Positions 10,524 through 32,933 of a stretch of DNA of 41,708 nucleotides are shown piece after piece (position 1 is the stretch's first letter; each line of letters opens with the position of its first letter). The notes below the pieces were generated by a model. The model saw nothing but the letters and a program-made list of their open reading frames with translations, made no database searches and was not told where the DNA came from. Source of the DNA: Alphaproteobacteria bacterium (lineage in GTDB: Bacteria > Pseudomonadota > Alphaproteobacteria > SP197); NCBI GenBank assembly GCA_040905845.1, contig JBBDQV010000046.1, positions 8,958 to 50,665 of the forward strand. The letters run 5' to 3'. The position numbers and the translations under genes were made by a program.

Positions 10524-11167
10524 CGCCCCCCGACGCCGAGGCGCTCGCGGCCGCCGAGCGGCTGTTCGCCCGACCCTGCCGATTCACGATCTCGGCCGCC
10601 AAGGAGTCGGACCTGCCGACGCCGACCCTGCCCGAGATCGCGTTCACCGGGCGATCGAACGTCGGCAAGTCGAGCCTGCTCAACGCGCTGGTCGGGCGGC
10701 GCGACCTCGCGCGCACGTCCCAGACCCCGGGCCGCACGCGTATGCTCAACCTGTTCGATCTCGACGGCCGGCTCGTGCTCGTCGATCTGCCGGGCTACGG
10801 CCACGCGAGCGCGCCGCGAGCCGAGATCAAGGCGTGGACCGGCCTCGCCGAGCGCTACTTGCGCGGCCGGCCGACGCTCAGGCGTGTTCTCGTGCTGATC
10901 GACGCCAGGCGCGGCGCGATGGCGGGCGACCGGGCGGTCATGGCGGCGCTGGACGCCGCGGCGGTGGTCTACCAGGCCATCCTGACCAAGGCCGACGCGG
11001 TCAAGCCGGGGGCGCTCGCCCAGCGTCTCGCGGCGCTCGAGGCCGAGCTCGCGCGGCGGCCCGCGGCCTACCCGGTGGTGATCGCGACCAGCGCGCGGAC
11101 CGGCGCCGGCATCGCCGCGCTGCGCGTTTCGCTCGCCCGATTGGCGGGGGAGCCCGACCTCGCGTAG
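10487..11167 (+). CDS. engB: Ribosome biogenesis GTPase YihA/YsxC/EngB
   Basis: G1 GRSNVGKSS, G2 TPGRT, G3 DLPGYG, G4 TKAD, G5 TSA. Start is either ATG 10487 inside yidC or CTG 10520. Confidence 0.93.
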   Translation: MDHHEAHGRESLTPPDAEALAAAERLFARPCRFTISAAKESDLPTPTLPEIAFTGRSNVGKSSLLNALVGRRDLARTSQTPGRTRMLNLFDLDGRLVLVDLPGYGHASAPRAEIKAWTGLAERYLRGRPTLRRVLVLIDARRGAMAGDRAVMAALDAAAVVYQAILTKADAVKPGALAQRLAALEAELARRPAAYPVVIATSARTGAGIAALRVSLARLAGEPDLA

Positions 11168-11179
11168 AGTGCGGCCGCC

Positions 11180-12088
11180 ATGAAGGTCAAGGACATCGGC
11201 CAGACCAAGCACTGGCTCAGGACCGCGGCGACGCTGACCGAGGCGTTGCCCTACATGCAGCGCTTCGCCGGGCAGACGTTCGTCATCAAGTACGGCGGCC
11301 ACGCCATGGGCGAGGCCAAGCTCGCCGAGAGCTTCGCCCGCGACGTGGTGCTCATCAAGCAGGTCGGCATCAATCCGATCGTCGTCCATGGCGGCGGCCC
11401 GCAGATCGGCCAGATGCTCGACCGCCTCGGCATACGCTCGACCTTCGTCGACGGCCTCAGGGTGACCGACGCCGACGCGGTCGAGATCGTCGAGATGGTG
11501 CTGTCGGGGTCGATCAACAAGCAGATCGTGACGGCGATCCACGAGGCCGGCGGCAAGGCCGTCGGGCTCAGCGGCAAGGACGGCCGGCTGATCGAGGCGC
11601 GCAAGCTCCGGCGCACCATGCGCGACCCGGACTCCAACATCGAGAAGATCCTCGACCTCGGCTTCGTCGGCGAGCCGGCGCGGGTTCATCCCGACGTGCT
11701 GCGCGTCTTCGCGGGCTCGGACATCATCCCCGTCATCGCGCCGATCGGCGTGGGCGCGGCCGGGGAGACCTACAACATCAACGCCGACACGGCCGCCGGC
11801 GCGGTCGCTCGCGCGGTCGGCGCGCGCAAGCTCATCATGCTGACCGACGTGGCCGGCGTGCTCGACGGCGACGGCGAGCTCGTGTCGAGGATGACCGCCT
11901 CCGACGGTCGCGCCATGATCGGCGGCAACGCCGTGACGGGGGGCATGATCCCCAAGCTCGAAACCTGCCTCGAGGCGGTCGAGGGGGGCATCCCCGAGTC
12001 CCACATCATCGACGGTCGGGTGCCGCACGTCCTGCTGCTCGAGATCTTCACCGAGCACGGCACCGGCACGATGATCGTGCGCGGCTGA
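11180..12088 (+). CDS. argB: Acetylglutamate kinase
   Basis: [46 protein letters not shown]. Confidence 0.96.
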
Positions 12089-12092
12089 CGCC

Positions 12093-13313
12093 CTATCCGA
12101 TTCGCGACAGGTACCAGCGGACGAAGCCCTGGGTTCCGGCTTCGCGCATCGAGTAGGGGCCCGGCCCGTAGCGGCGCGAGTTCACGCCGAGTTGGTTGTC
12201 GCCGATGATCTTGGTGTCCTCGATCGTCGTCACGTCCCACATCCAGGTGATGCGGTCGACGTCGTAGTCGCGGCCCTCGATCGCGTCCGCGCGCACGAGC
12301 CAGATCAGCACCACCTCGGTGTGCGTCGGCGTGACCGGGGTGAAGCGGAACAGCGTCGCGTGGTCGTTGGCGAGATAGACGTAGAACAGGGGCCCGAACA
12401 TGACGAGCGTCTCGCCGCCGTCGTACTCGTCGAGCTCGCCCATGAGCGGCGCCACGGGCTTGCCGTCCTGGGACAGGGTGAGCCAGCCCTCGCGGATCGG
12501 CTGGCGGAAGACCCCGTGCGGCTGGCGCCGGTCGGTCGTCTCGGAATCGAGCCGCTCGACCGGGCGGCCCTTGGCGGCCCAAACCTTCGCCCAGGCGTCG
12601 GTCACCTTCTGGTACGAGCCGGGCTCGTCGTCGCCCGCCTTCACGTACGCGTTGACCGTGGTGTATTCGGGGTGCGCCGGCGCGCAGTGGTAGCACTCAC
12701 GGAAGTTCTCGACCGCGAGCTTCCAGTTGCCGTCGGTCGGGTAGACCTTGCGCGCGACGATCTTCGCTTCGTCGAGACGGTAGAGACGGAGGTAGCGGCC
12801 GAGGCTCTCGGCCAGGGGCTCGAACGGCATGACGTCGGGATCGCCGGCCCGGCCGAGGTTGATGAAGATCATGCCTTCCCACGCGCGCACCTGGCACGGG
12901 TGCAGCGGCCAGGCCTTCGGGTCGAACCCCTCGGGCATGTTCTTGGCGCGGATCAGTTTGCCTTCCAGGTCGTAGACCCAACCGTGGTAGGGGCAGGTCA
13001 GGGTGCGTACCTTGCCGGTGGGCTCCAGGCACACGCGGCTGCCGCGGTGCCGGCAGACGTTGAAGAAGGCGCGCACGCTTCGGTCGCGCCCGCGCACGAG
13101 CACGATCGACTCGCCGGCGATCTCGTAGAGCAGGGTGTCGCCCGGTTCGCCGAGGCGCGAGGCGTGATCGACGAACAGCCACTGCTTCGTGGCGATACGC
13201 TCGAGGTCGCGCTCGAACACGGCGCGCTCGAGGTAGAACGGTTGCTCGAGCGAATGACCGGGCTTCTGGCGCGCGGCCAGGGCCTCGATCGTCGTCCCGT
13301 TTAGACCGCTCAT
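12093..13313 (-). CDS. Rieske non-heme iron oxygenase alpha subunit (GbcA/Stc2-like quaternary-amine oxygenase group)
   Basis: Rieske motif NVCRHRG...CPYHGWVY; mononuclear Fe motif NWKLAVENFRECYHCAPAHPE; C-terminal ED ligand region. ATG 13313 is preceded by GGAGGA. Confidence 0.9.
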   Translation of the reverse strand: MSGLNGTTIEALAARQKPGHSLEQPFYLERAVFERDLERIATKQWLFVDHASRLGEPGDTLLYEIAGESIVLVRGRDRSVRAFFNVCRHRGSRVCLEPTGKVRTLTCPYHGWVYDLEGKLIRAKNMPEGFDPKAWPLHPCQVRAWEGMIFINLGRAGDPDVMPFEPLAESLGRYLRLYRLDEAKIVARKVYPTDGNWKLAVENFRECYHCAPAHPEYTTVNAYVKAGDDEPGSYQKVTDAWAKVWAAKGRPVERLDSETTDRRQPHGVFRQPIREGWLTLSQDGKPVAPLMGELDEYDGGETLVMFGPLFYVYLANDHATLFRFTPVTPTHTEVVLIWLVRADAIEGRDYDVDRITWMWDVTTIEDTKIIGDNQLGVNSRRYGPGPYSMREAGTQGFVRWYLSRIG

Positions 13314-13329
13314 GAGTTCCTCCATCAGG

Positions 13330-13467
13330 CTAGAGCAGCATCCGATCGAGTGGAATCGCCTCCGGCGATCCGCCGATCGGATAAAGCTGCTCTAGACGTT
13401 GAATCTAGAGCAATTTCATCCGATCGGATTGAACTACGTGGTTCAATCCGGTCGGATATTGCTCTAG
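13330..13467 (+). repeat. CTAG-bounded double-hairpin intergenic repeat, copy 2
   Basis: Arm 1 CTAGAGCAGC...GCTGCTCTAG (13330-13395), short linker, arm 2 CTAGAGCAAT...ATTGCTCTAG (13405-13467). The last CTA is the stop of the flavoprotein gene. Confidence 0.92.
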
Positions 13468-15518
13468 GCGCGGGCCGCGATGACCACGCGATCGCGCATG
13501 GCCTCGACGTCGTTGGCGCCGAGCTCGCGGGCGTAGCGGTGGCCGGCGAAGGTCGCCGCCGCGATCAGCCCCGGCGCCGCGCAATCGCCGATCCGGCGCA
13601 GGGTCCCGATGCCCGCCGATCGCAGTCGATTCTCGTCGCCGGCGAGGTCGCGATAGAGCGCTTCGTTGGGCTCGCGCGAGGTGACCGGGACCAGGGTCGC
13701 GCAGGCGCGCGTGACCTCGCGGCCACCATAGACGTTGGCGAGGCGCGAGCCTTCGGCGCCGAACGCGACGACCTTATGCGAGACGAGGATCTCGACCCCG
13801 AGCTCGAGCAACCGCGCCTGGATGCGGCCCTGGTCGAGCGTGCGCAGGGCTTCGGGCGAGACCTCGCCCGAGGTCGTCACGAGAAGGACGTCGTGGCCGG
13901 CCGCGCGCAGCTTCTCGGCGATGACGCCGCCCATGTAGAAGTGGTCGTCGTCGTAGACCACGACCGGGCCTTCGACCGTCGCGCCGTCCATGACCTCGTC
14001 GACCGTGACCACGCCGGCGCGCTTCCAGCCGTCCAGGGGCGTGTAGCTCGACCGGCCGGTGCCGTCGCGCCGCCACGTCGCGCCGGTCGCGATGCACACA
14101 TGCTCGAAGCCGAAGTCGAGGATCTGGCGCGCGTCGAGCCGGCTGTCCTTGAACACCTCGACGTTGGGCATCTTGTTGATTTGCTGCACCCGATAGTCGC
14201 GCACCCGCGCCCATTCGGCGAGCCCGGGCAGCCGGCTCTCGCGCGTCACCCGGCCGCCGAGCTCGATGCCCGCCTCGGCGAGCGAAACGCGATAGCCGCG
14301 CGCGCCGAGCGCACGCGCGGCTTCCAGACCGGCCGGGCCGGCGCCGACGATCAGCGCCCGCTCGTCCGCGTGGCGCCGGGCGATGCGCTCCGGGTGCCAG
14401 TCGCGCCGCCATTCCTCGCCGCGCGTCGGGTTCTGGGTGCACGCCAGCGGCACCGCATGCCCGTTCGACCAGATGCAAATGTTGCAGCCGATGCATTCGC
14501 GGATGTCGTCGATCCGGCCTTCCTCGATCTTCCTCGGCAGGAACGGATCGGCGATGGAGGGGCGCGCGGCGCCGATCATGTCGAGGATGCCGCGCCGGAT
14601 CTGGCCGACCATGGTGTCCGGGCTGGTGAAGCGTCCGACGCCGACCACCGGCTTGGTCGTCACGGTCTTGACGAAGGCGACGTATTTCTCCTGCGCCGCC
14701 TCGGGCGCGAACCGCGAGGTGCGCGCGTCGGCCATGAAGTTGGCGATGTTAACGTCCCAGATGTCGGGCAGCTCGGCGACGTACTCGACCAGCGCGCGCC
14801 CGTCGCCGTCGCACGTGATGCCGAACGCCTGATCCAGGTTGTCGACCGCGAAGCGGAACGCGACCCCGCAGGTGGCGCCGACCGCTTCCTTGGTTTCCTC
14901 CAGGAGCTCGCGGATCAGACGGGCGCGGTTCTCGAAGCTGCCGCCGTACTCGTCGGTGCGCGTGTTCTGCACGGGCGACAGGAACTGCGCCGGCAGGTAA
15001 CCGTGGGCGGCATAGACGTAGACGATGTCGAAGCCGGCCCGCTTGGCCCTGAGCGCCGCGTCGCGGTGCCAGCGCCTGAGGTTGCGGATGTCGGTCTTGT
15101 CCATGGTCATGGTCTGCACCGGAGACTGCCAGACCGGCATGCTGCCCGGCGCGAGCGAGGGCTCGCGGGTCAGCGCGTTGCCCGTGGAGAACCCGCCGTA
15201 CCACAGCTCGACGCCGGCCAGCGCGTCGTGGCGATGGACGCGCTCGACCATGTCGCCGAGGGTGCGCACGTCGTCCTCGTCCCACAGCGTGCACTGGGGG
15301 TAGGGGTCATCGTTGGCCGAGGGGTGGATCGAGCAGTACTCGGTGCAGACAACGGCCCAGCCGCCCTCGGCGTTGGTCTCGCGCATGCGGTGCAGGGTCT
15401 GGGGCCGCGTGTAGCCCATGCCGCTGCAATGGGGCACCTGGTAGAAGCGGTTCCGCGCGGTGACCGGCCCGATTCTCACCGGCTCGAACAGCACGTCGTA
15501 GCGCGGGTCGCGTGCCAT
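13464..15518 (-). CDS. Trimethylamine/histamine dehydrogenase-type iron-sulfur flavoprotein (OYE barrel + 4Fe-4S + ADP-binding domain)
   Basis: The N-terminus MARDPRYDVLFEPVRIGPVTARNRFYQVPHC retains the Cys that binds FMN covalently in TMADH. Also YAAHGYL (Tyr/His), NTRTDEYGGSFENRAR, CIGCNIC-x12-C cluster motif and GAGPAG. Confidence 0.88.
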   Translation of the reverse strand: MARDPRYDVLFEPVRIGPVTARNRFYQVPHCSGMGYTRPQTLHRMRETNAEGGWAVVCTEYCSIHPSANDDPYPQCTLWDEDDVRTLGDMVERVHRHDALAGVELWYGGFSTGNALTREPSLAPGSMPVWQSPVQTMTMDKTDIRNLRRWHRDAALRAKRAGFDIVYVYAAHGYLPAQFLSPVQNTRTDEYGGSFENRARLIRELLEETKEAVGATCGVAFRFAVDNLDQAFGITCDGDGRALVEYVAELPDIWDVNIANFMADARTSRFAPEAAQEKYVAFVKTVTTKPVVGVGRFTSPDTMVGQIRRGILDMIGAARPSIADPFLPRKIEEGRIDDIRECIGCNICIWSNGHAVPLACTQNPTRGEEWRRDWHPERIARRHADERALIVGAGPAGLEAARALGARGYRVSLAEAGIELGGRVTRESRLPGLAEWARVRDYRVQQINKMPNVEVFKDSRLDARQILDFGFEHVCIATGATWRRDGTGRSSYTPLDGWKRAGVVTVDEVMDGATVEGPVVVYDDDHFYMGGVIAEKLRAAGHDVLLVTTSGEVSPEALRTLDQGRIQARLLELGVEILVSHKVVAFGAEGSRLANVYGGREVTRACATLVPVTSREPNEALYRDLAGDENRLRSAGIGTLRRIGDCAAPGLIAAATFAGHRYARELGANDVEAMRDRVVIAARA

Positions 15519-21492: not shown

Positions 21493-21573
21493 CCCGCCTC
21501 CTTCGCCTCGGGCGCACATTGCCGGATCGCGCACGCGACGGGAAGAGGTCTAATGGTAATCTTATTTGTAAAC

Positions 21574-21694
21574 CCGTTCGTCCTGAGTAGGCCGTAAGGG
21601 CGGTGTCTAAGGGCTAACGGCGTCACGAACTCCGTTCGTGGAACCCTTCGACCGCCGCTTCGCGGCGCTCAGGGCGAACGGATTTCGTGACGCC
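21574..21694. repeat. REP-like inverted dyad (CCTGAG/CCTTCGA family)
   Basis: CCGTTCGTCCTGAG (21574-21587) and CTCAGGGCGAACGG (21668-21681) match 13/14 as inverted repeats. 21619-21638 and 21675-21694 match 19/20 as inverted repeats. Inner hairpin CGCCGC-TTC-GCGGCG. Confidence 0.75.
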
Positions 21695-21809
21695 TTACCA
21701 AATGCGATCGCCCTGGAAGAGGTCTCTGCCGGCTTTGACTTCGTCGAGCGAGTCGTCGATCCTCGCCGCCGACTGAACGACACATCCTCGGCCGGTACGG
21801 GACCCCGCG

Positions 21810-22211
21810 ATGATCGATGCCGGCGCGGCGATCCGCGCCTACTGCGCCGCGTTCGCCGCGCGCGACGCGGACTCCATCGTGGCTCTGTTCGCGGAGCGCG
21901 GGCTTTACGAGATGCCGCTCCTGCGCACGCGCATGGTCGGGTCCGCCGAGATTGCGGCCGGCCTCGCGCGCGCCTTCGCGATCATGACGGCGTGCTCGAT
22001 CGAGCTCCAGCGGGTACGGGCGAACGGGGCAACCGCGCTCGCCGAGGGCACCATGACCGCCACGGTCGCGCGCGAGCCTAGGCCGATGACCGCGCCGTTC
22101 GCGCTCGTCGCCGCCATGGCGGGCGATCGCGTCGGCCGGCTTTCGGTCTACCTCGACGCGCGGCCCCACCGGCTGTGGTCGGACGGGTCCGTGCTGGCGC
22201 TCGGTCGATGA
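21810..22211 (+). CDS. NTF2/SnoaL-like protein
   Basis: 133 aa with the SnoaL-type pattern RAYCAAFAARDADSIVALFAE...G...AEG...GDRVGRLSVYLD. Confidence 0.8.
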   Translation: MIDAGAAIRAYCAAFAARDADSIVALFAERGLYEMPLLRTRMVGSAEIAAGLARAFAIMTACSIELQRVRANGATALAEGTMTATVAREPRPMTAPFALVAAMAGDRVGRLSVYLDARPHRLWSDGSVLALGR

Positions 22212-23698
22212 GTCCCGCCGATCTCCTGCGCGCCTACTGCAGGGCTTTCGCCGCGCGCGACGTGGCGACGATCGAGAGTCTTTTCGCCGAGGACGCGGTC
22301 TGCGACATACCCTTGCTCGACGAGCGGCTCGTCGGCCGCGCCCACGTCGTGCGCGAGATCGCGACCGCGATTCGGGGCCTGCGGGGCATCCGGGTCGAGC
22401 TCGGCGCGATCGTCGAGGGCGACGATGACGCCATGGCCGAGGGCCTGTTCTTCGGCGCACTCGTCGGGCACCCGGCCCAGGTGGACGGCACGCCGGCGCG
22501 CACCGACTTCCGGTTCGTCGCGGTCGTCGAGGCGCCGGACGGCAAGATCGCCCGCCTGTCGGAGTACTTCGACACCAAGCCGCTCAAGCCGTGGCAGCGG
22601 CAGCGGCTGTTCAACCACGCGGTCCGCCAGTCGCCCTACTGGGAAAGCTCGGTCCGCGCCGGGGCGGTCGAGTTCATGGCCTACAACCACATGACGTTTC
22701 CGATCGTCTACGGCCGCACGATGGCCGAGGAGTACGTCGCGCTGACCGAGCGGGTGACCTTGTGGGACGTCGGCTGCGAGCGTCAGACCGAGCTCCGCGG
22801 GCCGGACGCGCTCCGCCTCGCCGACTACCTCGCGAGCCGCGACCTCTCGAAGCTCGAATTGGGCGCGTGCCGCTACGCCTACGTCTGCGACCCGGACGGC
22901 CGGATCATCTGCGATCCGGTCATCCTGCGCCCCTGGCCGGACGTCGTGTGGCTGTCCCACGGCATGGCCGATCTGACGCTGTGGGCCAGGGGCATCGCGC
23001 TCGAGGGCGGCTGGGACGTGGCGGTTTCGGAGCCCGACGTGGCGCCCCTCCAGGTCCAGGGGCCGCACTCGGCCGACATGCTGCGTGGCCTCGTCGAGGC
23101 ACCGATCGACGCGCTCAAGTTCTACCGCTGCACCGTGACCAAGGTGGCGGGCATCGACGCCGTGGTCTCGCGCACGGGCTGGAGCGGCGCGCTGGGGTTC
23201 GAGATCTTCCCGCTCGGCTCGGCCCGCGCGATCGAGCTGTGGGACGCGCTGATCGAGGCCGGTCGGCCCCACGGGCTGGTCGTCACCGGGCCCGTGGTCC
23301 ACCGGGCCGTTGAGCGCAATGTCACCGACACGGCGTACGCGACCAACTCCGGCATGAACCCCTACGAGGCCGGCGGCGAGCGCATGGTCGATCTGGACGC
23401 CGGCGACTTCATCGGCCGCGACGCGCTCGCGCGCATCAGGCGCAAGGGCGCGAGGCGCCGGACGGTCGGGCTGTTCATCGACGGCGACCTGCCACGACTC
23501 GAATGGCACTGGCCGCTCACCGACGCGCGCGGCAAGCCGGGCGTCGTGCGCTGGGCCGCCCACTCCTTCGCGCTCGACCGCGCCGTCGGCATCGCGCTGG
23601 TCGACGCGGCCGTCGCCGAGGGCGAACGGGTCCGCATTGATCATCCCGGCGGCGGTGCATGGGCATCAGTCACAACCCTGCCGTTCGTCGAGGCCTGA
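22208..23698 (+). CDS. Fusion of an N-terminal NTF2/SnoaL domain to a GcvT/DmdA-like THF-dependent (amino)methyltransferase
   Basis: ATGA overlap with the upstream stop. Residues ~1-125 are SnoaL-like; these are followed by [61 protein letters not shown] and C-terminal LPF. Confidence 0.85.
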
Positions 23699-23762: not shown

Positions 23763-25175
23763 ATGCCCCGTCGCCCGCCCAAGGTCGGGATCGTCAGCCT
23801 CGGCTGCCCCAAGGCGCTGGTCGATACCGAGCGCATCGTCACGCACCTGCGCGCCGAGGGCTACGCCTTTTCGGCCGACTACAGGGGCGCTGACGTCGTT
23901 CTCGTCAACACCTGCGGGTTCCTCGACAGCGCGCGCCGGGAATCGCTCGATGCCATCGGCGAGGCGCTGGCCGAGAACGGCCGCGTCGTCGTCACCGGCT
24001 GCCTGGGCGCCGAGGCCGACCTGATCCGGCGGCATCATCCGGGCGTGCTCGCCGTGACCGGGCCGCACCAGTACGAAGCGGTCGTGGCGGCGATCCACGC
24101 CGTGCGCCCGCCGGCGCACGATCCGTTCATGGACCTGGTGCCGCCCGAAGGCATTAGGCTCACGCCGCGCCACTACGCCTACCTCAAGATCGCAGAGGGC
24201 TGCCACAACCGCTGCACCTTCTGCATCATCCCGAAGCTGCGCGGCGACCTGGTCAGCCGGCCGGCGGCCGAGGTCGTGCGCGAGGCCGAGCTTCTGGTCG
24301 CCGCCGGCGCCAAGGAGCTGCTCGTCGTGTCGCAGGACACCGGCGCCTACGGGCTCGACTTGCGCCATGCGTCGAGCACCTGGCGCGGGCGCGAGATCCG
24401 CGCCCATGTGGTCGACCTTGCGCGTGCGCTAGGGCGTCTTGGCGCTTGGGTCCGGCTGCACTACGTCTACCCCTATCCCCACGTCGACGACCTGATTCCG
24501 CTGATGGTCGAGGGCGCCGTGCTGCCCTATCTCGACATCCCCTTCCAGCACGCGAGCCCGCGCGTGCTCAAGGCCATGCGGCGGCCGGCCAACACCGACA
24601 AGACGCTCGCGCGGCTCGCAGGCTGGCGGGCCGCGGTGCCCGACCTCACCGTGCGCTCGACGTTCATCGTCGGGTTCCCCGGCGAGACCGACGAGGACTT
24701 CGAGACCTTGCTCGCGTGGCTCGAGACGGCCCGGATCGATCGGGTCGGCTGCTTCAAGTACGAGCCCGTCGCCGGGGCCGTCGCCAACGACCTCGCCGAG
24801 GCGGTGCCCGAGCCGGTCAAGCGGGAGCGCTACGATCGTCTGATGCAGGCGCAGCAGCGCATCAGCGCGGAGCGGCTCGCGCGCAAGGTCGGCCGCGTCG
24901 TCGACGTCATCGTCGATACGGCCGGGCCGGAGGGAGCCAAGGGCCGCACAATGGGCGACGCGCCCGAGATCGACGGCACGGTTCACCTCGCGGTCGGCGC
25001 GCGCCTGAGGCCGGGCGCCGTCGTCAGGGCGCGCATCGAGCGCGCCGACGCCTACGACCTGTGGGGCGCGCTCGCGGGCGACGCGAAATCCGCCTTCGAA
25101 GTCGCCACCAGTCAGCAGGCGGCCGCGAGGTCTCGCTCGTCGGCTCGAGGCAGGGCCGAGAGGTCGTCAAGGTAG
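23763..25175 (+). CDS. rimO: Ribosomal protein S12 methylthiotransferase RimO
   Basis: [19 protein letters not shown], radical-SAM [25 protein letters not shown] domain (DAPEIDG). ATG at 23763. Confidence 0.95.
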
Positions 25176-26518
25176 CGCTCGCGCCAAACATCGACCGTGT
25201 TGGCCTCGAGCCTCGCCAGCATCGCGCGCCAGCGCTCGCGCCGATCGACGATCGGCATGGACAACGCATCGTGCAGAGCGTTTCCGACCGCGTCGATGTC
25301 GTGAGGGTTGACGATGATGGCGCCGGTCAGCTCGCGTGACGCGCCCGCGAAGCGCGATAGGACCAATACGCCCGGGTCGGCCGGGTCCTGCGCCGCGACG
25401 TATTCCTTCGCGACCAGGTTCATGCCGTCGCGAAGAGGAGTGACGAAGCCCACCCGCGCCATGCGATAGAGCCCCGCCAACGTAGTGCGCGGCAGGCTGC
25501 GGTTGAGGTAGTGGACGGGCACCCAACCGACCTCGCCGAACTTCCCGTTGACTCGGCCCGCCGCGGCGTCGATCTCGCGCCGCAGCGCTCTGTACTGCGC
25601 GACCTCGCCGCGCGACACCGGCGCGATCTGCATGAACGTGATCTTGGCCCGATGCTCCGGGTGCGACTCGAGCAACGCACCGAACGCGGCAATCTTCTCG
25701 AACAGCCCCTTGCTGTAGTCGAGCCGGTCAACGCCGAGGATGAGCGAGCGCTCGCCCAAGCTGCCCCTTAGCCGCACGACCTCAGGGCCGCCGCGCGACT
25801 TCTTCGCCATCGCGACGAACGATGCGGTGTCGATCCCGACCGGGTGCGCCGCCACCTTGACGCGCCGCTCGAACGCGACGCAGTTGCCGCCGGGGCCCAT
25901 CACGCCGCCCAGCTCGTCGGTGATGTAGCGACGGAACGAGCGTACGTCGGCGGGCGTTTGCAGCCCGAGCAGATCGCTGGCGAACAGCCCACGCACCAGA
26001 TCGGCGTGGTGCGGCGCCATGGTCAGGATCTCCGGCGGCGGGAAGGGGGTATGCAGGAACTGCCCAATCCGGTTGCCGACGCCGATCCGCCGAAGCTCCT
26101 CGGCGAGGAAGAGAAAGTGATAGTCGTGGACCCAGACGTCGTCGTCGCTTCGGAGCAGGGGCTTGAGCGCCTGGGCCATCGCCCGGTTGACGCGTCGGTA
26201 GCCCTCATAGGTTTCGGGGCGGAACTCGGCACGCCCGAGACGGTAGTGGAACAGTGGCCACAACGTGCCGTTGGCGTAGCCGATGTAATAATCGGCATGG
26301 TCCTTCGGTGTCAGGTCGACGGTCGCGTAGCTGATCGCTCCCGACTTGACCACCCGTGGCTCGAACCGAGCGTCATCCGCAACCTCGCCGCTCCAGCCGA
26401 ACCACAGGCCGCCATGCCGCTGCAGCGCCTCGCGCAGCGCGATCGCGACTCCCCCGGCCTGAGCGGTCTGACCGCGCGGCATCGCAACGCGGTTGGAAAC
26501 GATCACCAACCGCGCCAA
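25112..26518 (-). CDS. otsA: Trehalose-6-phosphate synthase (GT20)
   Basis: [55 protein letters not shown]; TTG start at 26518 preceded by GGAGGA. Confidence 0.95.
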
Positions 26519-28290
26519 AACGCTTCCTCCCAGCTCCTGCTCACTCGCATCGCGCTGTTGATCAATCCGACCAGTATGTAGCTCTGGGGAAAGTTCCCCC
26601 ACAACTCACCGCTCTCCGGGGCGATGTCCTCGGACATGAGCCCGAGATGGTTGCGGCCGGCGAGAACGCCTTCGAAGATCGCCCGCGCCTCGCCGCGCCG
26701 GCCGATCGCCGCCAGCGCGTCAACGTACCACAGAGTGCAGACGATGAACGAGGTTTCGGGCACGCCGAAATCGTCCGCGGCAGCGTAGCGCAACAGATGA
26801 TCGCCGCGCCGGAGATGGCGCGTAACGGCATCGACCGAGGCGATGAAGCGCGGGTCGGTCGGTGCGATGAAGCCGATCTCGGGCAGCAGAAGCACACTCG
26901 CGTCGACGTGTCCGCCGTCCAGCCCATCGACGAAGGACCGCTCCGTCGGGTCCCACGCGCGCGCCGAGATGGTTTCGTGCAGGCGTGACGCCTCGGCGCG
27001 CCAGCGCGTCGCGCGTTCCGGCAGGCCGAGAACTTCCGCGATCTTGGCGAGCCGGTCGCAGGCGGCCCAGCACATGACCGCGGAGTGCGTGTGCGCGCGG
27101 CACCGCGTCCGATACTCCCAGAGCCCCGCGTCGGGCTCGAGCGCGCAGGCCACAGCCCGCTCGCCCAACGTTTCGAGGCGGGTGAACAGGGCCGCATCCC
27201 CTTGCCGCGGCAGCCGCCGATCGAAGAACATCTGGGCCGCGGCCAGAACGACGTTGCCATAGCTGTCGTTCTGAACCTGGTCCTCGGCCGCGTTCCCGAG
27301 GCGTACCGGGCCCATGCCCCGATACCCGGCCAGCGCGGCCGCCTCGCGCTCGGGCAGGCGTGCCCCCGGCACGATAGGATAGACCGGACGAAGGCGCTCG
27401 CCCGGCTCGACGTCCGCAACGTTCGTCACGAATCGGATGAAGTCCTCCATCGTCCGCGTCGCGCCGAGGCGGTTGAGCGCTTGGACGACGAAATAGGCGT
27501 CGCGCAGCCAGCAATAGCGATAGTCCCAATTGCGACCCGAACCCGGCGCCTCCGGGATCGACGTCGTCAAGGCGGCGACGATCGCTCCGGTCTCCTCGAA
27601 GCTGCACAGCTTGAGCGTGATCGCCGCGCGGATCACCGCCTCCTGCCATTCGAAGGGTACCGATAGGTAGCGCACCCACTCGCGCCAATAGTCGCGCGTC
27701 TGCTCGAGGAATTGCGCCACCGTCTCGGCGATCGGGCGGAACAGGGTCTCGTCGGGGCCGAGGATCAAGGACAACCGGCGATCGAGGACGAAGGGCCTCT
27801 CCTCGGCGATGTAGCTGACCGGGACCTCGGTCGTGAGCCGTAGCGCCTGGCGTGGCCCGACGTAGCGCAAATGATTGCTGCCAAGCGTGACGGTCGCGCG
27901 CACAGCGCCATCCTCGAACACCGGCCGCAGCCTGAGCCGCACGCGGCATGCGCCGAGCACCGGCTCGAGGACGCGCACAACCATGGGCGGCCGGAAGATT
28001 CGGTCGAACTGCTTGAACCGAGGAGAGAAGTCGGTGACGTGCATGCGGTTGCCGTGCGCGTCCTCGATCATGGTCGCGAGCACGGCCGTGTTGCGGTCGT
28101 AAGCCTGCTCGCTCCGGGCGGCGCCCTGCACGTCGACCGCAAAGAACCCCGCGTCGGCGCCGTTGACGAGCGAGCAGAACACCGGGTCGCCGTCGAGACG
28201 GGGATAGCAGGCCCACACGATCCGCGCCCACCGGTCGATGACGGCGGCGAATGCCGAATTTCCGATGACGCCGAGGTTCAAATCCTGCAT
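26503..28290 (-). CDS. Glycoside hydrolase family 15 (trehalase/glucoamylase-like)
   Basis: GAIVAALTTSIPE, RNWDYRYCWLRD, GLWEYR, SEDI...WGNFPQ; positioned between otsB and otsA. Confidence 0.92.
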   Translation of the reverse strand: MQDLNLGVIGNSAFAAVIDRWARIVWACYPRLDGDPVFCSLVNGADAGFFAVDVQGAARSEQAYDRNTAVLATMIEDAHGNRMHVTDFSPRFKQFDRIFRPPMVVRVLEPVLGACRVRLRLRPVFEDGAVRATVTLGSNHLRYVGPRQALRLTTEVPVSYIAEERPFVLDRRLSLILGPDETLFRPIAETVAQFLEQTRDYWREWVRYLSVPFEWQEAVIRAAITLKLCSFEETGAIVAALTTSIPEAPGSGRNWDYRYCWLRDAYFVVQALNRLGATRTMEDFIRFVTNVADVEPGERLRPVYPIVPGARLPEREAAALAGYRGMGPVRLGNAAEDQVQNDSYGNVVLAAAQMFFDRRLPRQGDAALFTRLETLGERAVACALEPDAGLWEYRTRCRAHTHSAVMCWAACDRLAKIAEVLGLPERATRWRAEASRLHETISARAWDPTERSFVDGLDGGHVDASVLLLPEIGFIAPTDPRFIASVDAVTRHLRRGDHLLRYAAADDFGVPETSFIVCTLWYVDALAAIGRRGEARAIFEGVLAGRNHLGLMSEDIAPESGELWGNFPQSYILVGLINSAMRVSRSWEEAFWRGW

Positions 28291-29084
28291 CGCCTGTCCT
28301 CGCGATCGAGTCTATCGACCACAGAACGCAGCCAGCGGCGCACGCCGTCGGGCCCGGGGACCCAATGTGCCGAAAGTGGCGTGCGGCGGGGCCCGACCTG
28401 GATCGCACTCCCGCCGTGATCGAGGGCCGCCTGGAAGGCGTCCTCGTCCGTTGCGTCGTCGCCGACGACGACGGGGACGCGACCCTGAAACGGCGGTTCG
28501 GCCATCAGTGCCCGCAGCGCCGCGCCCTTGTCCGCTCCGCGCGGCCGCGCGTCGACGACGCAGCGCCCGTGCAAGATTTCCAGGGCTTCGCCGGAACACT
28601 CGACCGCGCGGGTCATCGCGGCGAGGACGTCGTCGCCTCTCTCGGGCACGCGCCGGTAGTGTACGGCGATGGTGACGCCCTTGTCCTCGACAAGTATCCC
28701 GGGATACTCCATGGCTACGTGCCGCGCGGCCACGCGAACCGAATCCAGCGCCGCCGCCCCGGTCTCATTGAGCCGGGCCACGCCGCGATACTCGGCTCCG
28801 TGCTGTCCGATGATCGGCAGGGCGAGCGGCGCGAACAGGCGGCCAACGCAGTCGGTCGTGCGCCCGCTGATCAGGGCCACTGCACCTCGCAGGGACCGAT
28901 CGAGTCGGGCCAGGAGCGGGGCCAACTCCGAAGGAACGACGACGGCTTCGGGCGTGGCGGCGATATCCAGGAGGGTCCCGTCGACGTCGAGGAACAGAGC
29001 CCATCGCCGGCTCGGGCGCGGCATGAACTCGCCAGCCGAGCCGACGCAACCGTGATTGATCTCCCGCGTGCTGACTTGAACCAT
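28278..29084 (-). CDS. otsB: Trehalose-6-phosphate phosphatase (HAD)
   Basis: LFLDVDGTL, ISGR, GQHGAE, EDKG..HYR, DKG, GDDATDEDAF. Start uncertain (29084 or 29024). Confidence 0.92.
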   Translation of the reverse strand: MVQVSTREINHGCVGSAGEFMPRPSRRWALFLDVDGTLLDIAATPEAVVVPSELAPLLARLDRSLRGAVALISGRTTDCVGRLFAPLALPIIGQHGAEYRGVARLNETGAAALDSVRVAARHVAMEYPGILVEDKGVTIAVHYRRVPERGDDVLAAMTRAVECSGEALEILHGRCVVDARPRGADKGAALRALMAEPPFQGRVPVVVGDDATDEDAFQAALDHGGSAIQVGPRRTPLSAHWVPGPDGVRRWLRSVVDRLDREDRRCRI

Positions 29085-29145: not shown

Positions 29146-30705
29146 CTACAGCCTCGTGGCATTGTCGCCGGCAAACCCTTGCGAATCGACGAACGCGAGC
29201 AACCCATCGAGTAGGCTACGGTCGGCGATCAAACGCGGCACCTTGTGCTGGCCGCCGAGCTGGCCACGGCTCGCGAGCCAGGACGCGAACGCGCCGGGCG
29301 CGACGGCGAGGACGCGCGGCGGCTCCATGCCGACGCCGCCCGCTCGGTGCGCCTTGTAGTCGTCGTTGGTGGCGGCGAGCGCGTCGTCGAGCGCTAGTGC
29401 GAAGGCGACCAGGGCGTCGCGCGTGGGCAGGCTCGGCGCGAACTCGACGACAAATCGATGGTGGCCGAGCTCGCCGGCGCGTTCGGGCACGACCGCGCCC
29501 ACGACGTAGTCGACGACCGTGAGCCCGGCCGCAACCGCCGCGACGGCGACCGAGTCCTCGACCTCCTCGGCGATCAGGTGCTCGCCGAACGCCGACAGGC
29601 TGTAGGACGTCCGGCCGCTGACGACGAGTCGCGCCGGGTCGCGTCCGACAAGCCGCACCGTGTCGCCCAGCACATACGCCCACAGGCCGGCCGAGGACGT
29701 GACGACCAGGGCGTAGTCGATGCCGACCTCGGCGTCGGCGATCCAATGGCGCGTCGGCCGGGCGGCGCCGAGGTCCGCGACCGGGACGAACTCGAAGAAC
29801 AGCCCGTTGTCCAGGATCAGCCGCATGCCCTCGCCGTCGCTCCGGTCGGCCACGGCGATGAACCCCTCGCTCGCCGCGTAGACCTCGCGCGTCTCGGCGC
29901 GGCTGCCCTCCAGCAAGCCATGGAACTGGGCGCGGTAGGGCGCGAAGTTGACGCCACCATGGACGACCAGCTCGAGGTTCGGCCAGAACACCGCGAGCCG
30001 TCGCCGTGCCTTCGGAGCTAGCGTATCCATGCGGTCGATGAGCACGAGCAACCACGACGGCACGCCCGAGACCGAGCGGACGTCCCGCGCGAGCCCGTCC
30101 CGCGCCAGGCGTTCGATCTTGCGCTCCCAATCGGCCTCGAGCGCGAGCGCGCGAGCCGGAAACTGCCAGGGCCGCGCCCACCACGGGGCCGTCGCCGCGG
30201 CGATGCCGCTGAGGTCGCCGCTCGCCACGCCCGGCGCGAGCCGGGTCAACGCCGTGCTGCCGCCGAGCAGAAGGCTCTTACCGCCGAGCACGCGGCTTCG
30301 GGGCTGGTTGGCGAGGTGGTGGATCAGGACATCGGCCGCCGCGCGGCGGTTGGCGCGGACCATGTCCCACGAGCAGGGGATGTACTTGGTGACTCCGGTC
30401 GTCGTGCCCGAGGTGACCGCGAAGAAGGGTATCCGGCCAGGCCAGGTCACGTCGCGAAGGGTGGGGAAGCGCGCCTTCCAGTACGACGTCCAGAAATCGT
30501 CATAGCGGCGCAACGGGACCGTGGTGGCGAAGTCCCTGGGCGTCGCGATCCGCTCGAAGCCGTGCTCGCGCCCGAACGCGGTCGCGCGCGCGCGGCGGAT
30601 CAGCGCCGCCAAAGTCCTCGCCTGGGCGGCCACCGGGTCCTCGCGGACCAGTCGCGCGAGCCGGCGTCGTGCGTAGACGCGGAACAAGGGCGTCACGTCG
30701 AGCAT
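29146..30705 (-). CDS. GH3 family (auxin-responsive GH3-like) acyl-acid amido synthetase
   Basis: Adenylation motifs TSGTTTGVTKYIP, YAASEG and YVLGD; C-terminal GGQHKVPRL; SGVPSW. Start ATG 30705 overlaps the acylase 3' end. Confidence 0.88.
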   Translation of the reverse strand: MLDVTPLFRVYARRRLARLVREDPVAAQARTLAALIRRARATAFGREHGFERIATPRDFATTVPLRRYDDFWTSYWKARFPTLRDVTWPGRIPFFAVTSGTTTGVTKYIPCSWDMVRANRRAAADVLIHHLANQPRSRVLGGKSLLLGGSTALTRLAPGVASGDLSGIAAATAPWWARPWQFPARALALEADWERKIERLARDGLARDVRSVSGVPSWLLVLIDRMDTLAPKARRRLAVFWPNLELVVHGGVNFAPYRAQFHGLLEGSRAETREVYAASEGFIAVADRSDGEGMRLILDNGLFFEFVPVADLGAARPTRHWIADAEVGIDYALVVTSSAGLWAYVLGDTVRLVGRDPARLVVSGRTSYSLSAFGEHLIAEEVEDSVAVAAVAAGLTVVDYVVGAVVPERAGELGHHRFVVEFAPSLPTRDALVAFALALDDALAATNDDYKAHRAGGVGMEPPRVLAVAPGAFASWLASRGQLGGQHKVPRLIADRSLLDGLLAFVDSQGFAGDNATRL

Positions 30706-32933
30706 CGCCGGAGCCCCTGGTCCGGAGGCGTCAGGACCGTGACGTGCGGGAAGCTCGTAGCGGCGGTTTCGGGCCGCAGCGGAATGCGCACCAGACGGCC
30801 GCTCCGCCACAAAGCGACCTGGTCGAGCAGGGTGTCGCTGCCGAGCCAGCCGTCCTGGCCGCCGAGCAGCACGACCTCGTTGGCGTCGGCATCCGCGAGG
30901 TCAGAAATCCAGCGGGCGTTGGCGCCGTAGTTGACCGAATGCCGGGCTTCGACCAGGCCGTGGGCCGCCTTGGCCACCGTCTCGTCGCTGCCAGGTGACG
31001 GCAGGTCCGCCATGGCCCAGCGCCGGCCGACAAGGGGCAGCCGGCTCAAGGGGTGGGCGAGGCGCAGCCGGTGCATCGCGCCCCAGGTCGGGGTGCGGGC
31101 GGCGCGGCGAGCGGCGTCGGGCAGCGCGCGCAGGATGGTCCCGGCGACGATGCCCGGCGGCGCCTCTCGCATGTCCGCGAGCAGCCGCTGGCGAAAGCGC
31201 CAGCCCGAGCGATACGCCGCCAGGCGCACTTCGTCGAGAAAGCCGCGGGCGAAGCGCGCGAGCAGGATCTCGAACGCGGGCGCGCCGGTCGATTCGACCG
31301 GGTAGCTGCCGTCCCAGGCCGCGAGCCGTGCGACGAGCGACCGCTCCGTCTTGCCGAGCCCCGCGGGATCGCCGATCGCCGCGAGCAGCGCGGACTTCAG
31401 CTCGCGCGAGCTCGCCATGAGGTCGTCGCGCTGGATGCGAGCCAGATCGGCCGCCGTCAACGCTGTCGCGACGTCCAGCAACTCCCTCAGCCGCTCGGCC
31501 CTCGTCGTCGGCGAGAAGAAGAGGCCGATCAGGATTTCGCTCCGCGGCGGCGGCTCGTTGGCGGACACGACGATACCGTCCGGCGGATCGATACTTTGCG
31601 GCAGGTCGCGGGCGGTCGCGAATGCGTCCCAATAGTCCGCTTCGCGCGCGGGCGTGGCCAGGTTCATCGATGCCTCGGGCTTTCGCCTCGGCAGGTGGGC
31701 GGCGATGGCGCGGCCGACGCGGCCCGCTGCGTCGGCATAGACGAATGTCTGGCCGGGCACGGCGAAACCTTCGAGCGCGGCGCGGAACGTAACCCAGTCC
31801 CGCGCGCGGTTGAGCGCGAGCATCGCGCCGAGCTCGTCGCTTGGCCGGTGCCCGACCCAGCGCAGCGCGAGCGTGCGCCCCGTCGGGATCGCGATCAACG
31901 GCGCATCGTTCAGCACGGGGCCGAACGCGGTTTCGCGCACGGTGATCGTCTCGGGCCGGCCCCAGCGGACACGGATGATCGCCGCGCGCGGCGCGAACGA
32001 CGAAGCAGGCTCGTCCGTCACGTCGATCAGCTCGCTCGACAGCGCGTGGAGATTGGTCCCGCCCCAGGCGATCCACCGGTTTCGGCCGATCGCGACGAAT
32101 GGTAGGGCGGGCAGCATCAGGCCGACGGCGTTATGACCCGGCGACGTCATGCCGGCGACGATCCACAGGCCGGGGACGTGCAGGCCGAGGTGGGGATCGC
32201 TCGCGAGAAACGCGTTGCCGGCCGCACGGGTGCCCGCTACGGCGAAGGCGTTGCTGCCGTGCCCGGTGGCGCCGAGCACGGCGTCGAGCGGGTCCGCGGC
32301 GCGCCCCGCGTCGCCCATCGCGCGCCACAGCGCGGCGAAATCGGGGTGCCCGGCGAGGCGTAGGCCGGCGACCATGGCGAGCCAGCTCACGTCCCAGCTC
32401 GCCAGCCGTCCGATCGCGAGGACATCGGTCGCGTGCCACGGCGCGCGATCGAGGCCGAGCAGAGGGAACTCCGGCGGCATCAGGCGCGCCTTGTCGACGA
32501 CGTGGTTGATCCCGGCGACGAAGCCGTCGAGCCAGGCCCGCGTCGCCGTTGGCATCGCGTCGAGAATGCTGGGCACGGCGCGGGCCAAGTCGAGCACGCG
32601 CAGGCTGCGGTCGAGCGGCAGCGCGATTCCGCCGACCAGCTCGGCCGTACGGCCGTGGGCGATGTGGCGCAGCACCTCCATCTGGGCCAGCCGGAGATGA
32701 GCGTGGACGACGCCGAGGCCGACCGCGAGGTCCGCGTCCCGCTCCGCCTCGAGCCACGGTATCTGGTTATCGTTCCACCGTACCGTGACCGGCGACACCA
32801 CGGGGGCGCCGCGCAGCGGCAGGTTCGCGAGCCGCTCGGCCAGCGACACCCGTCGGGGCGGGGGATGGCGCAGCAGCGACCAGGAGAGGCGCGCCGCGAG
32901 CGCGGCGAGCATGGCGGTACGCCGCAGGTTCAC
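30693..32933 (-). CDS. Penicillin acylase / Ntn amidohydrolase (S45) family protein
   Basis: Alpha-subunit IPWLEA...GLGVVHAHLRLAQME; beta-subunit N-terminal nucleophile in G|SNAFAV...ASDPHL; GRNRWIAWGGTN, VSANE, WGAMH, GGQDG. Confidence 0.88.
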   Translation of the reverse strand: MNLRRTAMLAALAARLSWSLLRHPPPRRVSLAERLANLPLRGAPVVSPVTVRWNDNQIPWLEAERDADLAVGLGVVHAHLRLAQMEVLRHIAHGRTAELVGGIALPLDRSLRVLDLARAVPSILDAMPTATRAWLDGFVAGINHVVDKARLMPPEFPLLGLDRAPWHATDVLAIGRLASWDVSWLAMVAGLRLAGHPDFAALWRAMGDAGRAADPLDAVLGATGHGSNAFAVAGTRAAGNAFLASDPHLGLHVPGLWIVAGMTSPGHNAVGLMLPALPFVAIGRNRWIAWGGTNLHALSSELIDVTDEPASSFAPRAAIIRVRWGRPETITVRETAFGPVLNDAPLIAIPTGRTLALRWVGHRPSDELGAMLALNRARDWVTFRAALEGFAVPGQTFVYADAAGRVGRAIAAHLPRRKPEASMNLATPAREADYWDAFATARDLPQSIDPPDGIVVSANEPPPRSEILIGLFFSPTTRAERLRELLDVATALTAADLARIQRDDLMASSRELKSALLAAIGDPAGLGKTERSLVARLAAWDGSYPVESTGAPAFEILLARFARGFLDEVRLAAYRSGWRFRQRLLADMREAPPGIVAGTILRALPDAARRAARTPTWGAMHRLRLAHPLSRLPLVGRRWAMADLPSPGSDETVAKAAHGLVEARHSVNYGANARWISDLADADANEVVLLGGQDGWLGSDTLLDQVALWRSGRLVRIPLRPETAATSFPHVTVLTPPDQGLRRCST

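Follow-up and report, generated by a model that had tools for sequence, protein, structure and literature searches.

The stretch of DNA analyzed here, hereafter the window, comprises 41,708 nucleotides of a draft genome of an Alphaproteobacteria bacterium (GenBank assembly GCA_040905845.1, contig JBBDQV010000046.1, positions 8,958 to 50,665 of the forward strand), and at positions 21810 to 23698 it carries two adjacent genes on the + strand that form the subject of this work. The first (21810..22211) encodes an NTF2-type protein of 133 amino acids (aa), assigned by Pfam to SnoaL_2, and the second (22208..23698) a fusion of 496 aa in which a SnoaL_2 domain is followed by GCV_T and GCV_T_C. Within the fusion, residues 1-125 (22208..22582) make up the N-terminal NTF2 domain, residues ~126-137 (22583..22618) a short linker of low predicted confidence with a KPLKPxER motif, and residues 138-496 together with the stop codon (22619..23698) a DmdA-type, GcvT-fold domain predicted to bind tetrahydrofolate (THF). 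The large open reading frame (ORF) is open from a GTG at 22175 or an ATG at 22208 to 23698, and the latter start is preferred because homologues of the fusion begin at a methionine matching 22208 (M-S/T-P... in the alignment). This ATG overlaps the TGA of the small gene in an ATGA (22208..22211, + strand; the junction reads ...ggtcgATGAgtcc...), an arrangement that most probably couples translation of the two genes. Genes were called with a filter based on GC content at third codon positions (GC3), a greedy longest-ORF rule having been dropped as it chose antisense ORFs at 70% GC.

The original prediction for this locus, made by reading the sequence, had taken the small protein and the N-terminus of the fusion for paralogues joined by ATGA, and both observations were confirmed. 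SnoaL_2 (PF12680) is matched at 59.5 bits by the small protein and at 59.1 bits by residues 8-116 of the large one, against a cut-off of 27, and BLASTP aligns the small protein with residues 7-130 of the large one with 42 of 124 positions identical (34%, E 2e-18), the motifs that had been quoted for the pair being present in the alignment. A reference scan with one genome for each of 185,579 species returned 169 relatives, of which 80 were kept as loci and searched by tblastn with the three parts of the operon. Small NTF2s proved 33-63% identical to one another and 28-36% identical to fused ones, so that each type matches its own type better than the other; therefore, the NTF2 duplication predates the spread of the family. 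The AlphaFold2 (AF2) model of the small subunit has the NTF2 cone (alpha+beta) fold, with a mean predicted local distance difference test (pLDDT) of 89.5 and template modeling (TM) scores of 0.70-0.81 to NTF2-fold structures, and its structural neighbors are generic (hypothetical proteins, ketosteroid isomerase [KSI], limonene epoxide hydrolase [LEH] and TerC, at 13-27% identity). A profile search with this subunit gave only generic SnoaL_2 domains in other architectures (major facilitator superfamily [MFS], zinc-dependent alcohol dehydrogenase [Zn-ADH], tandem NTF2), with weak E-values and none informative. In a 22-sequence alignment the small subunit has 14 invariant residues, and a conserved motif, Y-L-D-A-R-P-x-R-L-W-x-D-G, lies at its C-terminus. 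The NTF2 domain of the fusion is instead marked by a conserved loop, VDGTPxRxDFRF, at residues about 92-103 and, across 44 aligned sequences, by the invariants E78, F101, E119 and D122, while R131 of the linker is invariant across the aligned fusions. N-terminal to the GcvT domain, Pfam matched only SnoaL-type families, with no flavin adenine dinucleotide (FAD) domain of the DAO type and no DUF1989.

The remaining 360 residues belong to the GcvT superfamily, with GCV_T at residues 155-361 (111.4 bits, cut-off 25.6) and GCV_T_C at residues 417-494 (32.8 bits, cut-off 25.9). The best NCBIfam model for the fusion is the DmdA equivalog NF009133, at 237.7 bits vs a cut-off of 410, followed by Tdm, the trimethylamine N-oxide (TMAO) demethylase (162.7 vs 1100 bits); the GcvT and SoxA models rank below Tdm, far under their cut-offs, and LigM and DesA reach 56.3 and 54.4 bits vs 580 and 800. 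The closest solved sequence is the DmdA of P. ubique (PDB 3tfh, E 4e-46), ahead of T-proteins, Tdm (9q59), dimethylglycine dehydrogenase (DMGDH), dimethylglycine oxidase (DMGO) and sarcosine oxidase. The AF2 model of the whole fusion is confident (pLDDT 90.4, predicted TM-score [pTM] 0.88) and poor only in the linker, where pLDDT falls below 50 at residues 126-131 and 133-135; its best Foldseek match is 3tfh_A (TM 0.92), with 1woo at TM 0.90, as for a three-domain T-protein fold. The DmdA-like signatures already noticed in the original prediction, YNHM, WDV..ERQ and DPV(I/V)L, match 3tfh position by position in the alignment. Invariant across the 44 fusions are W186-D187-V188, E191, Q193, D236, W325 and E332, among which W325 and E332 correspond, in a gap-free alignment to 3tfh, to W197 and E204 of DmdA, and D236 aligns with its D108-type Asp (the Asp of NDPV/DDLV). 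A PeerJ paper describes the Trp, W171 in its own numbering, as key for the interaction with dimethylsulfoniopropionate (DMSP) and the Glu as a folate-site residue (PMC7487153); the offset of 26 that relates this numbering to 3tfh was mapped in the present analysis. The folate-site acidic residues D236 and E332 are retained in the fusion.

Run on 36 unfused homologues, the DmdA model is passed by five (412-550 bits), while 30 fall at 307-393 and the actinobacterial split form, described below, at 229. A phylogeny had been proposed along with the original prediction, and in a quick IQ-TREE run of 89 rows, which carried a long-branch warning, the 15 fused and two split GcvT sequences form one clade of their own on the DmdA branch (SH-aLRT 99, stem 0.83), separate from the five rows that pass the DmdA cut-off, so that a grouping with DmdA proper was not found. 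Because the fusion scores under the equivalog cut-off and its clade stands apart from the passing rows, we take the domain to be a putative folate-binding, DmdA-type member of the GcvT superfamily that constitutes a distinct subfamily and not DmdA itself. The term "new system" of the original prediction is overstated; what is new is the architecture and the subfamily, both lying within the DmdA/GcvT kind. These data also bear on the idea that the operon encodes a DmdA isozyme with DMSP or a closely related sulfonium compound as its substrate; the NTF2 pair would then be only an oligomerization scaffold or a ligand-sensing regulatory module. DmdA is indeed the closest family by sequence, profile and fold, W325 is conserved, and the residues shared by both NTF2 types mostly map to the predicted interface between them (see below), but we hold this explanation to be quite improbable, given the distance from the equivalog cut-off, the separate and long-stemmed clade, the sequencing-run labels and record names pointing to soil, sediment, cave or freshwater, and the fact that 14 invariants of the small subunit and a Glu specific to the fused type exceed the needs of a scaffold.

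The fusion is not peculiar to this assembly. In a collection of 5.8 billion proteins, 118 of the 120 best clusters carry PF01571 + PF12680 in ~495 aa at 51-100% identity, the other two being short GcvT-only pieces. The names given by the sources are generic ('aminomethyltransferase', 'glycine cleavage system T/ketosteroid isomerase-like protein', 'nuclear transport factor 2 family protein' or 'NTF2 family protein'), and a literature search, judged partly by title and abstract and with supplements outside its scope, found no paper describing this architecture, in agreement with the earlier impression that it had not been characterized. The reference scan yielded the full fusion in 21 loci (L001-L021), three of them interrupted by a contig end, and a small-type NTF2 gene lies directly upstream in 21/21, which answers in the affirmative whether a free SnoaL gene always precedes it. 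The junction is a 4-nt overlap in L001 and L013 and mostly a gap of ~2-43 nt in the other 18 fused loci, its form depending on the chosen start in L016 and L018. Over 10 locus pairs, the ratio of nonsynonymous to synonymous substitution (dN/dS) ranged from 0.13 to 0.48 in the small gene and from 0.06 to 0.19 in the fusion, showing purifying selection on both. A draft genome of 218 contigs and 81% completeness could raise the suspicion that a stop codon was lost, that the contig is chimeric or that the small ORF is spurious. Such an artefact has a negligible probability and is refuted by the recurrence of the same fusion in the clusters from several sources, by the 21 reference-genome loci, which include the isolate Aminobacter anthyllidis LMG 26462, by the synteny of the locus in the same-genus genome G001 (that of L001), by dN/dS values well under 1 in both genes and by the confident fold of the whole chain.

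The fused form is nevertheless rare and patchily distributed. It was found in five of 41 close-relative genomes (G000 counted), in the genera g1 and g2 only, and in 0/400 genomes sampled evenly from the rest of the class (E <= 1e-120). According to record titles, its carriers are Rhodospirillaceae, Dongiaceae, Hyphomicrobium, Aminobacter, Parvibaculaceae, Steroidobacteraceae, other Gammaproteobacteria and one Candidatus Acidoferrum. The listed sequencing runs that hold the stretch of the window are sediment and soil metagenomes, only one of them with >=half of the sampled words, and no RNA runs are among them. In a second genome of the same genus, G002, only the last 133 codons of the fusion were found (L081 2892-3290, 73% identical), adjoining rimO and with a family-III CoA-transferase gene upstream, which is the decayed vestige that a natural deletion has left of the operon in this sister species; the module is therefore dispensable.

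Variants of the arrangement were also observed. In two metagenome-assembled genomes (MAGs) of Actinomycetes (L022 and L023) an unfused GcvT gene, whose product is 53% identical to the folate domain of the window, is followed ~20 nt downstream by a single NTF2 gene, that is, in reversed order. This NTF2 is of the fused type, with an ...AEYFDTK... ending that includes the E119-equivalent Glu, and is without the VDGTP loop. Two free-standing fused-type NTF2s from a representative library (P0172 and P0189, ending ...EYFDTDPLL and ...EYLDTKPLL) suggest that more split versions exist beyond these two loci, and P0159 and P0166 from the same library constitute a second, more divergent small-type group in which the C-terminal R.W.D motif is kept. 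No longer fused forms (869-2480 aa) were found, which is weak evidence, and no related NTF2 gene occurred within the fetched flanks of unfused DmdA-like genes (0/57 loci). As a separate observation on such unfused genes, Thermoplasmata/'Methanobacteriota' archaeal MAGs (L026, L029-L031, L033, L036, L037, L041 and L042) carry three DmdA-like paralogues at one locus, every paralogue falling in its own subclade and those scored lying just under the DmdA cut-off (347-379 bits).

A physical association of the two products was already proposed in the original prediction, as a hetero-oligomeric NTF2 head that binds or opens a substrate. When the whole fusion was folded with the small subunit, the interface score ipSAE was 0.68 (0.68, 0.75 and 0.68 in the individual runs), compared with 0.00 for the best of three controls; the benchmark mark applied is reached by 116 of 157 solved complexes and by two of 215 mismatched pairs. 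Contacts agree at >=82% among the runs and the partner has a pLDDT of >=80. The predicted interface is pseudo-symmetric and sheet-to-sheet, involving residues 35-38, 67-78, 101-106 and 118-124 of the fusion and 36-37, 68-81, 96-102 and 112-116 of the small subunit, and an NTF2 heterodimer formed by the small subunit and the NTF2 domain of the fusion is thereby predicted. Residues invariant in both NTF2 types (E34/D33, P36, G44, E79-G80, R110, Y114 and D116) mostly lie in or beside this interface.

The hetero-oligomeric part of that proposal is thus upheld as a structural prediction, while the notion that the head opens a substrate or channels a one-carbon unit is a hypothesis. The catalytic residues of KSI are Tyr14 and Asp38. 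This pair is not kept in the small subunit, where the Asp38 position is occupied by Met35 and the Tyr14 position by Y11, which is Y, F or H among orthologues, and no catalytic motif of known NTF2 enzymes was found in the NTF2 pair. On the other hand, E119 is invariant in fused-type NTF2s only and replaced by V/I/T/L/F in the small type, as would be expected of a pair in which one member retains a working pocket and the other has degenerated, and the fusion may have such a pocket.

The pair is isolated in the window, flanked by two divergent short-chain dehydrogenase/reductase (SDR) genes upstream and by rimO downstream; recurrent neighbors occur in the loci of relatives. A betaine-binding protein of the OpuAC type occurs in six of these, with an ABC ATPase, a permease and an EutQ-like cupin. 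L003 and L004 combine a BetI-type TetR regulator with 5-formyl-THF cyclo-ligase, and in L002 a gene resembling methylenetetrahydrofolate reductase (MTHFR) lies 39 nt downstream. Aldehyde dehydrogenases are present in L002 and L017; in the latter, from Aminobacter anthyllidis (9687-12017), genes for an aldehyde dehydrogenase and for a BisC-family molybdopterin S/N-oxide reductase (915 bits vs a cut-off of 1017) come after the pair, a hint that the pathway of this strain may be connected with N- or S-oxides. Amino-acid permeases adjoin the pair in L005, L018 and L020, and an SBP_bac_5 ABC system with a PhyH dioxygenase is found in L006, L008 and L009, accompanied by BKACE in L008. Dongiaceae loci contain an old yellow enzyme (OYE)/Fe-S flavoprotein, saccharopine dehydrogenase and an agmatinase-family gene, and those of Actinomycetes an aminotransferase, a TRZ/ATZ amidohydrolase and CoxMSL-type (Mo-hydroxylase) genes. 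As for regulation, a LuxR-type regulator lies directly upstream in eight loci and a divergent TetR in eight. What these contexts have in common is the uptake and breakdown of small, charged N- or S-methylated compounds along with the recycling of folate, with no single pathway conserved, and the neighbors of relatives point to a betaine or onium-type substrate.

Some further features of the loci deserve mention in their own right. In the window, 6-10 kb upstream of the pair (12096-15518, - strand), a GbcA-like Rieske oxygenase gene (320 bits vs a cut-off of 670) adjoins one for a 684-aa OYE-FMN/Fe-S/pyridine-nucleotide flavoprotein, reminiscent of the pairs that demethylate betaine or N-methylproline; their function may be related to that of the operon, beside which they are not conserved. 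The MR_MLE, Zn-ADH, 3-hydroxyisobutyrate dehydrogenase (HIBADH) and SDR genes that neighbor the pair in the window were considered as pathway partners and rejected, as they are shared only with L001/G001 and resemble a sugar-acid cluster. A third, unrelated SnoaL_2 gene lies beside an Amidohydro_3 gene just upstream of the LuxR-pair unit in L015 (2530-3009) and L016 (1760-2311). Farther along the window, on the - strand, are a trehalose cluster (25112-29084) with an otsA-like GT20 gene, a GH15/trehalase-like gene and a trehalose phosphatase gene and, after it, a gene for a 554-aa bacterial GH3-family (acyl-acid amido synthetase-like) protein (29149-30810). The intergenic region common to the operon and the divergent SDR gene (21535..21809) holds, 5' of the small gene, a palindrome of ~70 nt with 20-nt arms of 95% complementarity (21618-21694). 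Since the element recurs in four more partial copies of 91-96% identity on contigs C146, C152, C132 and C130, it is not operon-specific; a role as an operator dedicated to this operon was ruled out, and the element looks like a dispersed repeat of the repetitive extragenic palindrome (REP)/miniature inverted-repeat transposable element (MITE) kind. An Rfam scan of the upstream region returned no family and only two sub-threshold sRNA matches (E 0.47 and 0.78), so no riboswitch was detected, and a consensus scan for a sigma-70 promoter or terminator gave no match at the operon.

Considering these results together, we lean with moderate confidence toward the view that the two genes form a self-contained operon encoding a heteromeric, THF-dependent methyl or one-carbon (C1) transferase, with the NTF2 pair binding the substrate or forming a second site. 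The large protein would, with its C-terminal 360 residues, bind THF and accept the one-carbon unit, most likely through methyl transfer from a small onium compound of the betaine or sulfonium type, as DmdA does with DMSP. The small protein, presumably made in step with the large one by virtue of the overlapping ATGA, would pair sheet-to-sheet with its paralogous domain in the fusion, and the resulting pseudo-symmetric NTF2 pair would sit on the short linker at the N-terminus of the folate domain. There it would most likely recognize the substrate, act as a gate or form a second site, the fused-type NTF2 having retained the invariant pocket Glu E119 that the small partner lost. Direct methyl transfer from an onium donor is favored because of the DmdA-type motifs, the conserved Trp and the MTHFR-like neighbor.

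Several points weigh against this view. Methyl transfer to THF is chemically harder from a quaternary ammonium than from a sulfonium. The family has no conserved neighborhood, only SDR genes upstream and rimO downstream being present in the window and in the relative nearest to it, and the agmatinase-family (Dongiaceae), CoxMSL and TRZ/ATZ (Actinomycetes) and S/N-oxide reductase (Aminobacter) contexts point elsewhere. In addition, the favorable heterodimer score may partly reflect general likeness, because many NTF2 homodimers have been solved, the pairing modeled being that of the fusion with the small subunit.

It is also conceivable that the operon encodes a two-site enzyme resembling Tdm, in which the NTF2 pair is the catalyst that releases a C1 unit at the formaldehyde level, for instance from a carbinolamine, an N-oxide or a hemiaminal, while the role of the GcvT domain is limited to trapping this unit as 5,10-methylene-THF. 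In Tdm, DMGO, DMGDH and sarcosine oxidase, whose PDB entries match the folate domain of the fusion, a GcvT domain is joined to a C1-generating module, and in Tdm two N-terminal DUF1989-type domains, which its authors take from calorimetry to act as a homodimer within the protein, precede GcvT much as the NTF2 pair does here (PMC12560246). The retention of E119 in fused-type NTF2s, including the free-standing ones, and its loss in the small type would suit such a catalyst, as would the S/N-oxide reductase and aldehyde dehydrogenases adjoining the pair in L017 and L002 and the presence of the GbcA-like Rieske protein and OYE flavoprotein in the window. We nevertheless consider it unlikely, though a serious alternative, because no known NTF2 catalytic constellation was found, the structural neighbors of the small subunit are generic at 13-27% identity, the folate domain retains the DmdA-type WDVxxERQ together with the DMSP-linked Trp, and the MTHFR-like neighbor in L002 suits 5-methyl-THF better than 5,10-methylene-THF. 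A bolder proposal, which we regard as similarly doubtful, sees in the NTF2 heterodimer a new module, seated on a DmdA-type folate domain, that acts as a catalyst or activates the substrate without a cofactor; the small subunit would be a degenerate partner without the pocket Glu. The operon would then represent a new class of two-subunit THF-dependent demethylase, and its substrate would be an onium metabolite of soil or plants for which no folate-linked route is known, examples being trigonelline or another N-methylpyridinium betaine, S-methylmethionine and N-/S-oxides.

Under the THF-dependent methyl or C1 transferase that we favor, the family would belong among the enzymes (DmdA, LigM/DesA, Tdm, DMGO) that control the entry of methyl groups from osmolytes, lignin and amines into C1 metabolism. 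Identifying its substrate could uncover a folate-linked route, so far missing, for some methylated metabolite of soil or plants, and would make clear what part an NTF2 heterodimer plays in methyl transfer. As Aminobacter anthyllidis LMG 26462, which carries the family, is in culture, these proposals are directly testable.

Compared with known systems, the closest is DmdA, which forms 5-methyl-THF by direct methyl transfer, as described for that enzyme (PMC7487153), and with which the fusion shares the GcvT fold (TM 0.92), the YNHM, WDVxxERQ and DPV(I/V)L motifs, the Trp (W325 = W197) and the folate-site Glu E332. Unlike DmdA, however, the fusion scores under the cut-off (238 vs 410 bits), falls in a separate clade, has an additional N-terminal NTF2 domain and an obligatory-looking NTF2 partner gene, and occurs in non-marine hosts, with no dmdBCD-type neighbors seen in the annotated flanks. 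Tdm (DUF1989 + DUF1989-like + GcvT) is similar in that a C-terminal, DmdA-related GcvT domain follows a pair of like-folded domains, although the N-terminal module of the fusion is NTF2 and not a metal-binding DUF1989, and one copy of the pair is here a separate polypeptide. DMGO, DMGDH and the alpha subunit of sarcosine oxidase also consist of a GcvT-type folate domain fused to a C1-generating module (PDB matches at E 1e-17 to 6e-24), whereas the fusion contains no DAO/FAD domain and has the DmdA-type WDVxxERQ in place of the FDVSHMG of T-proteins. The aryl O-demethylases LigM and DesA share the GcvT fold and THF-dependent methyl transfer but are much more distant from the fusion (weak match, E about 4e-10, TM 0.60) and are without an NTF2 module. 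For the NTF2 pair itself a parallel is offered by PhzA and PhzB of phenazine biosynthesis, adjacent paralogous proteins of the NTF2/KSI fold that form a heterodimer with one partner more active, though unlike the present pair they have no folate domain and perform unrelated chemistry. With the family described here, NTF2 would become the fourth type of N-terminal partner of the GcvT scaffold and, among the modules compared, the only one that is split over two polypeptides.

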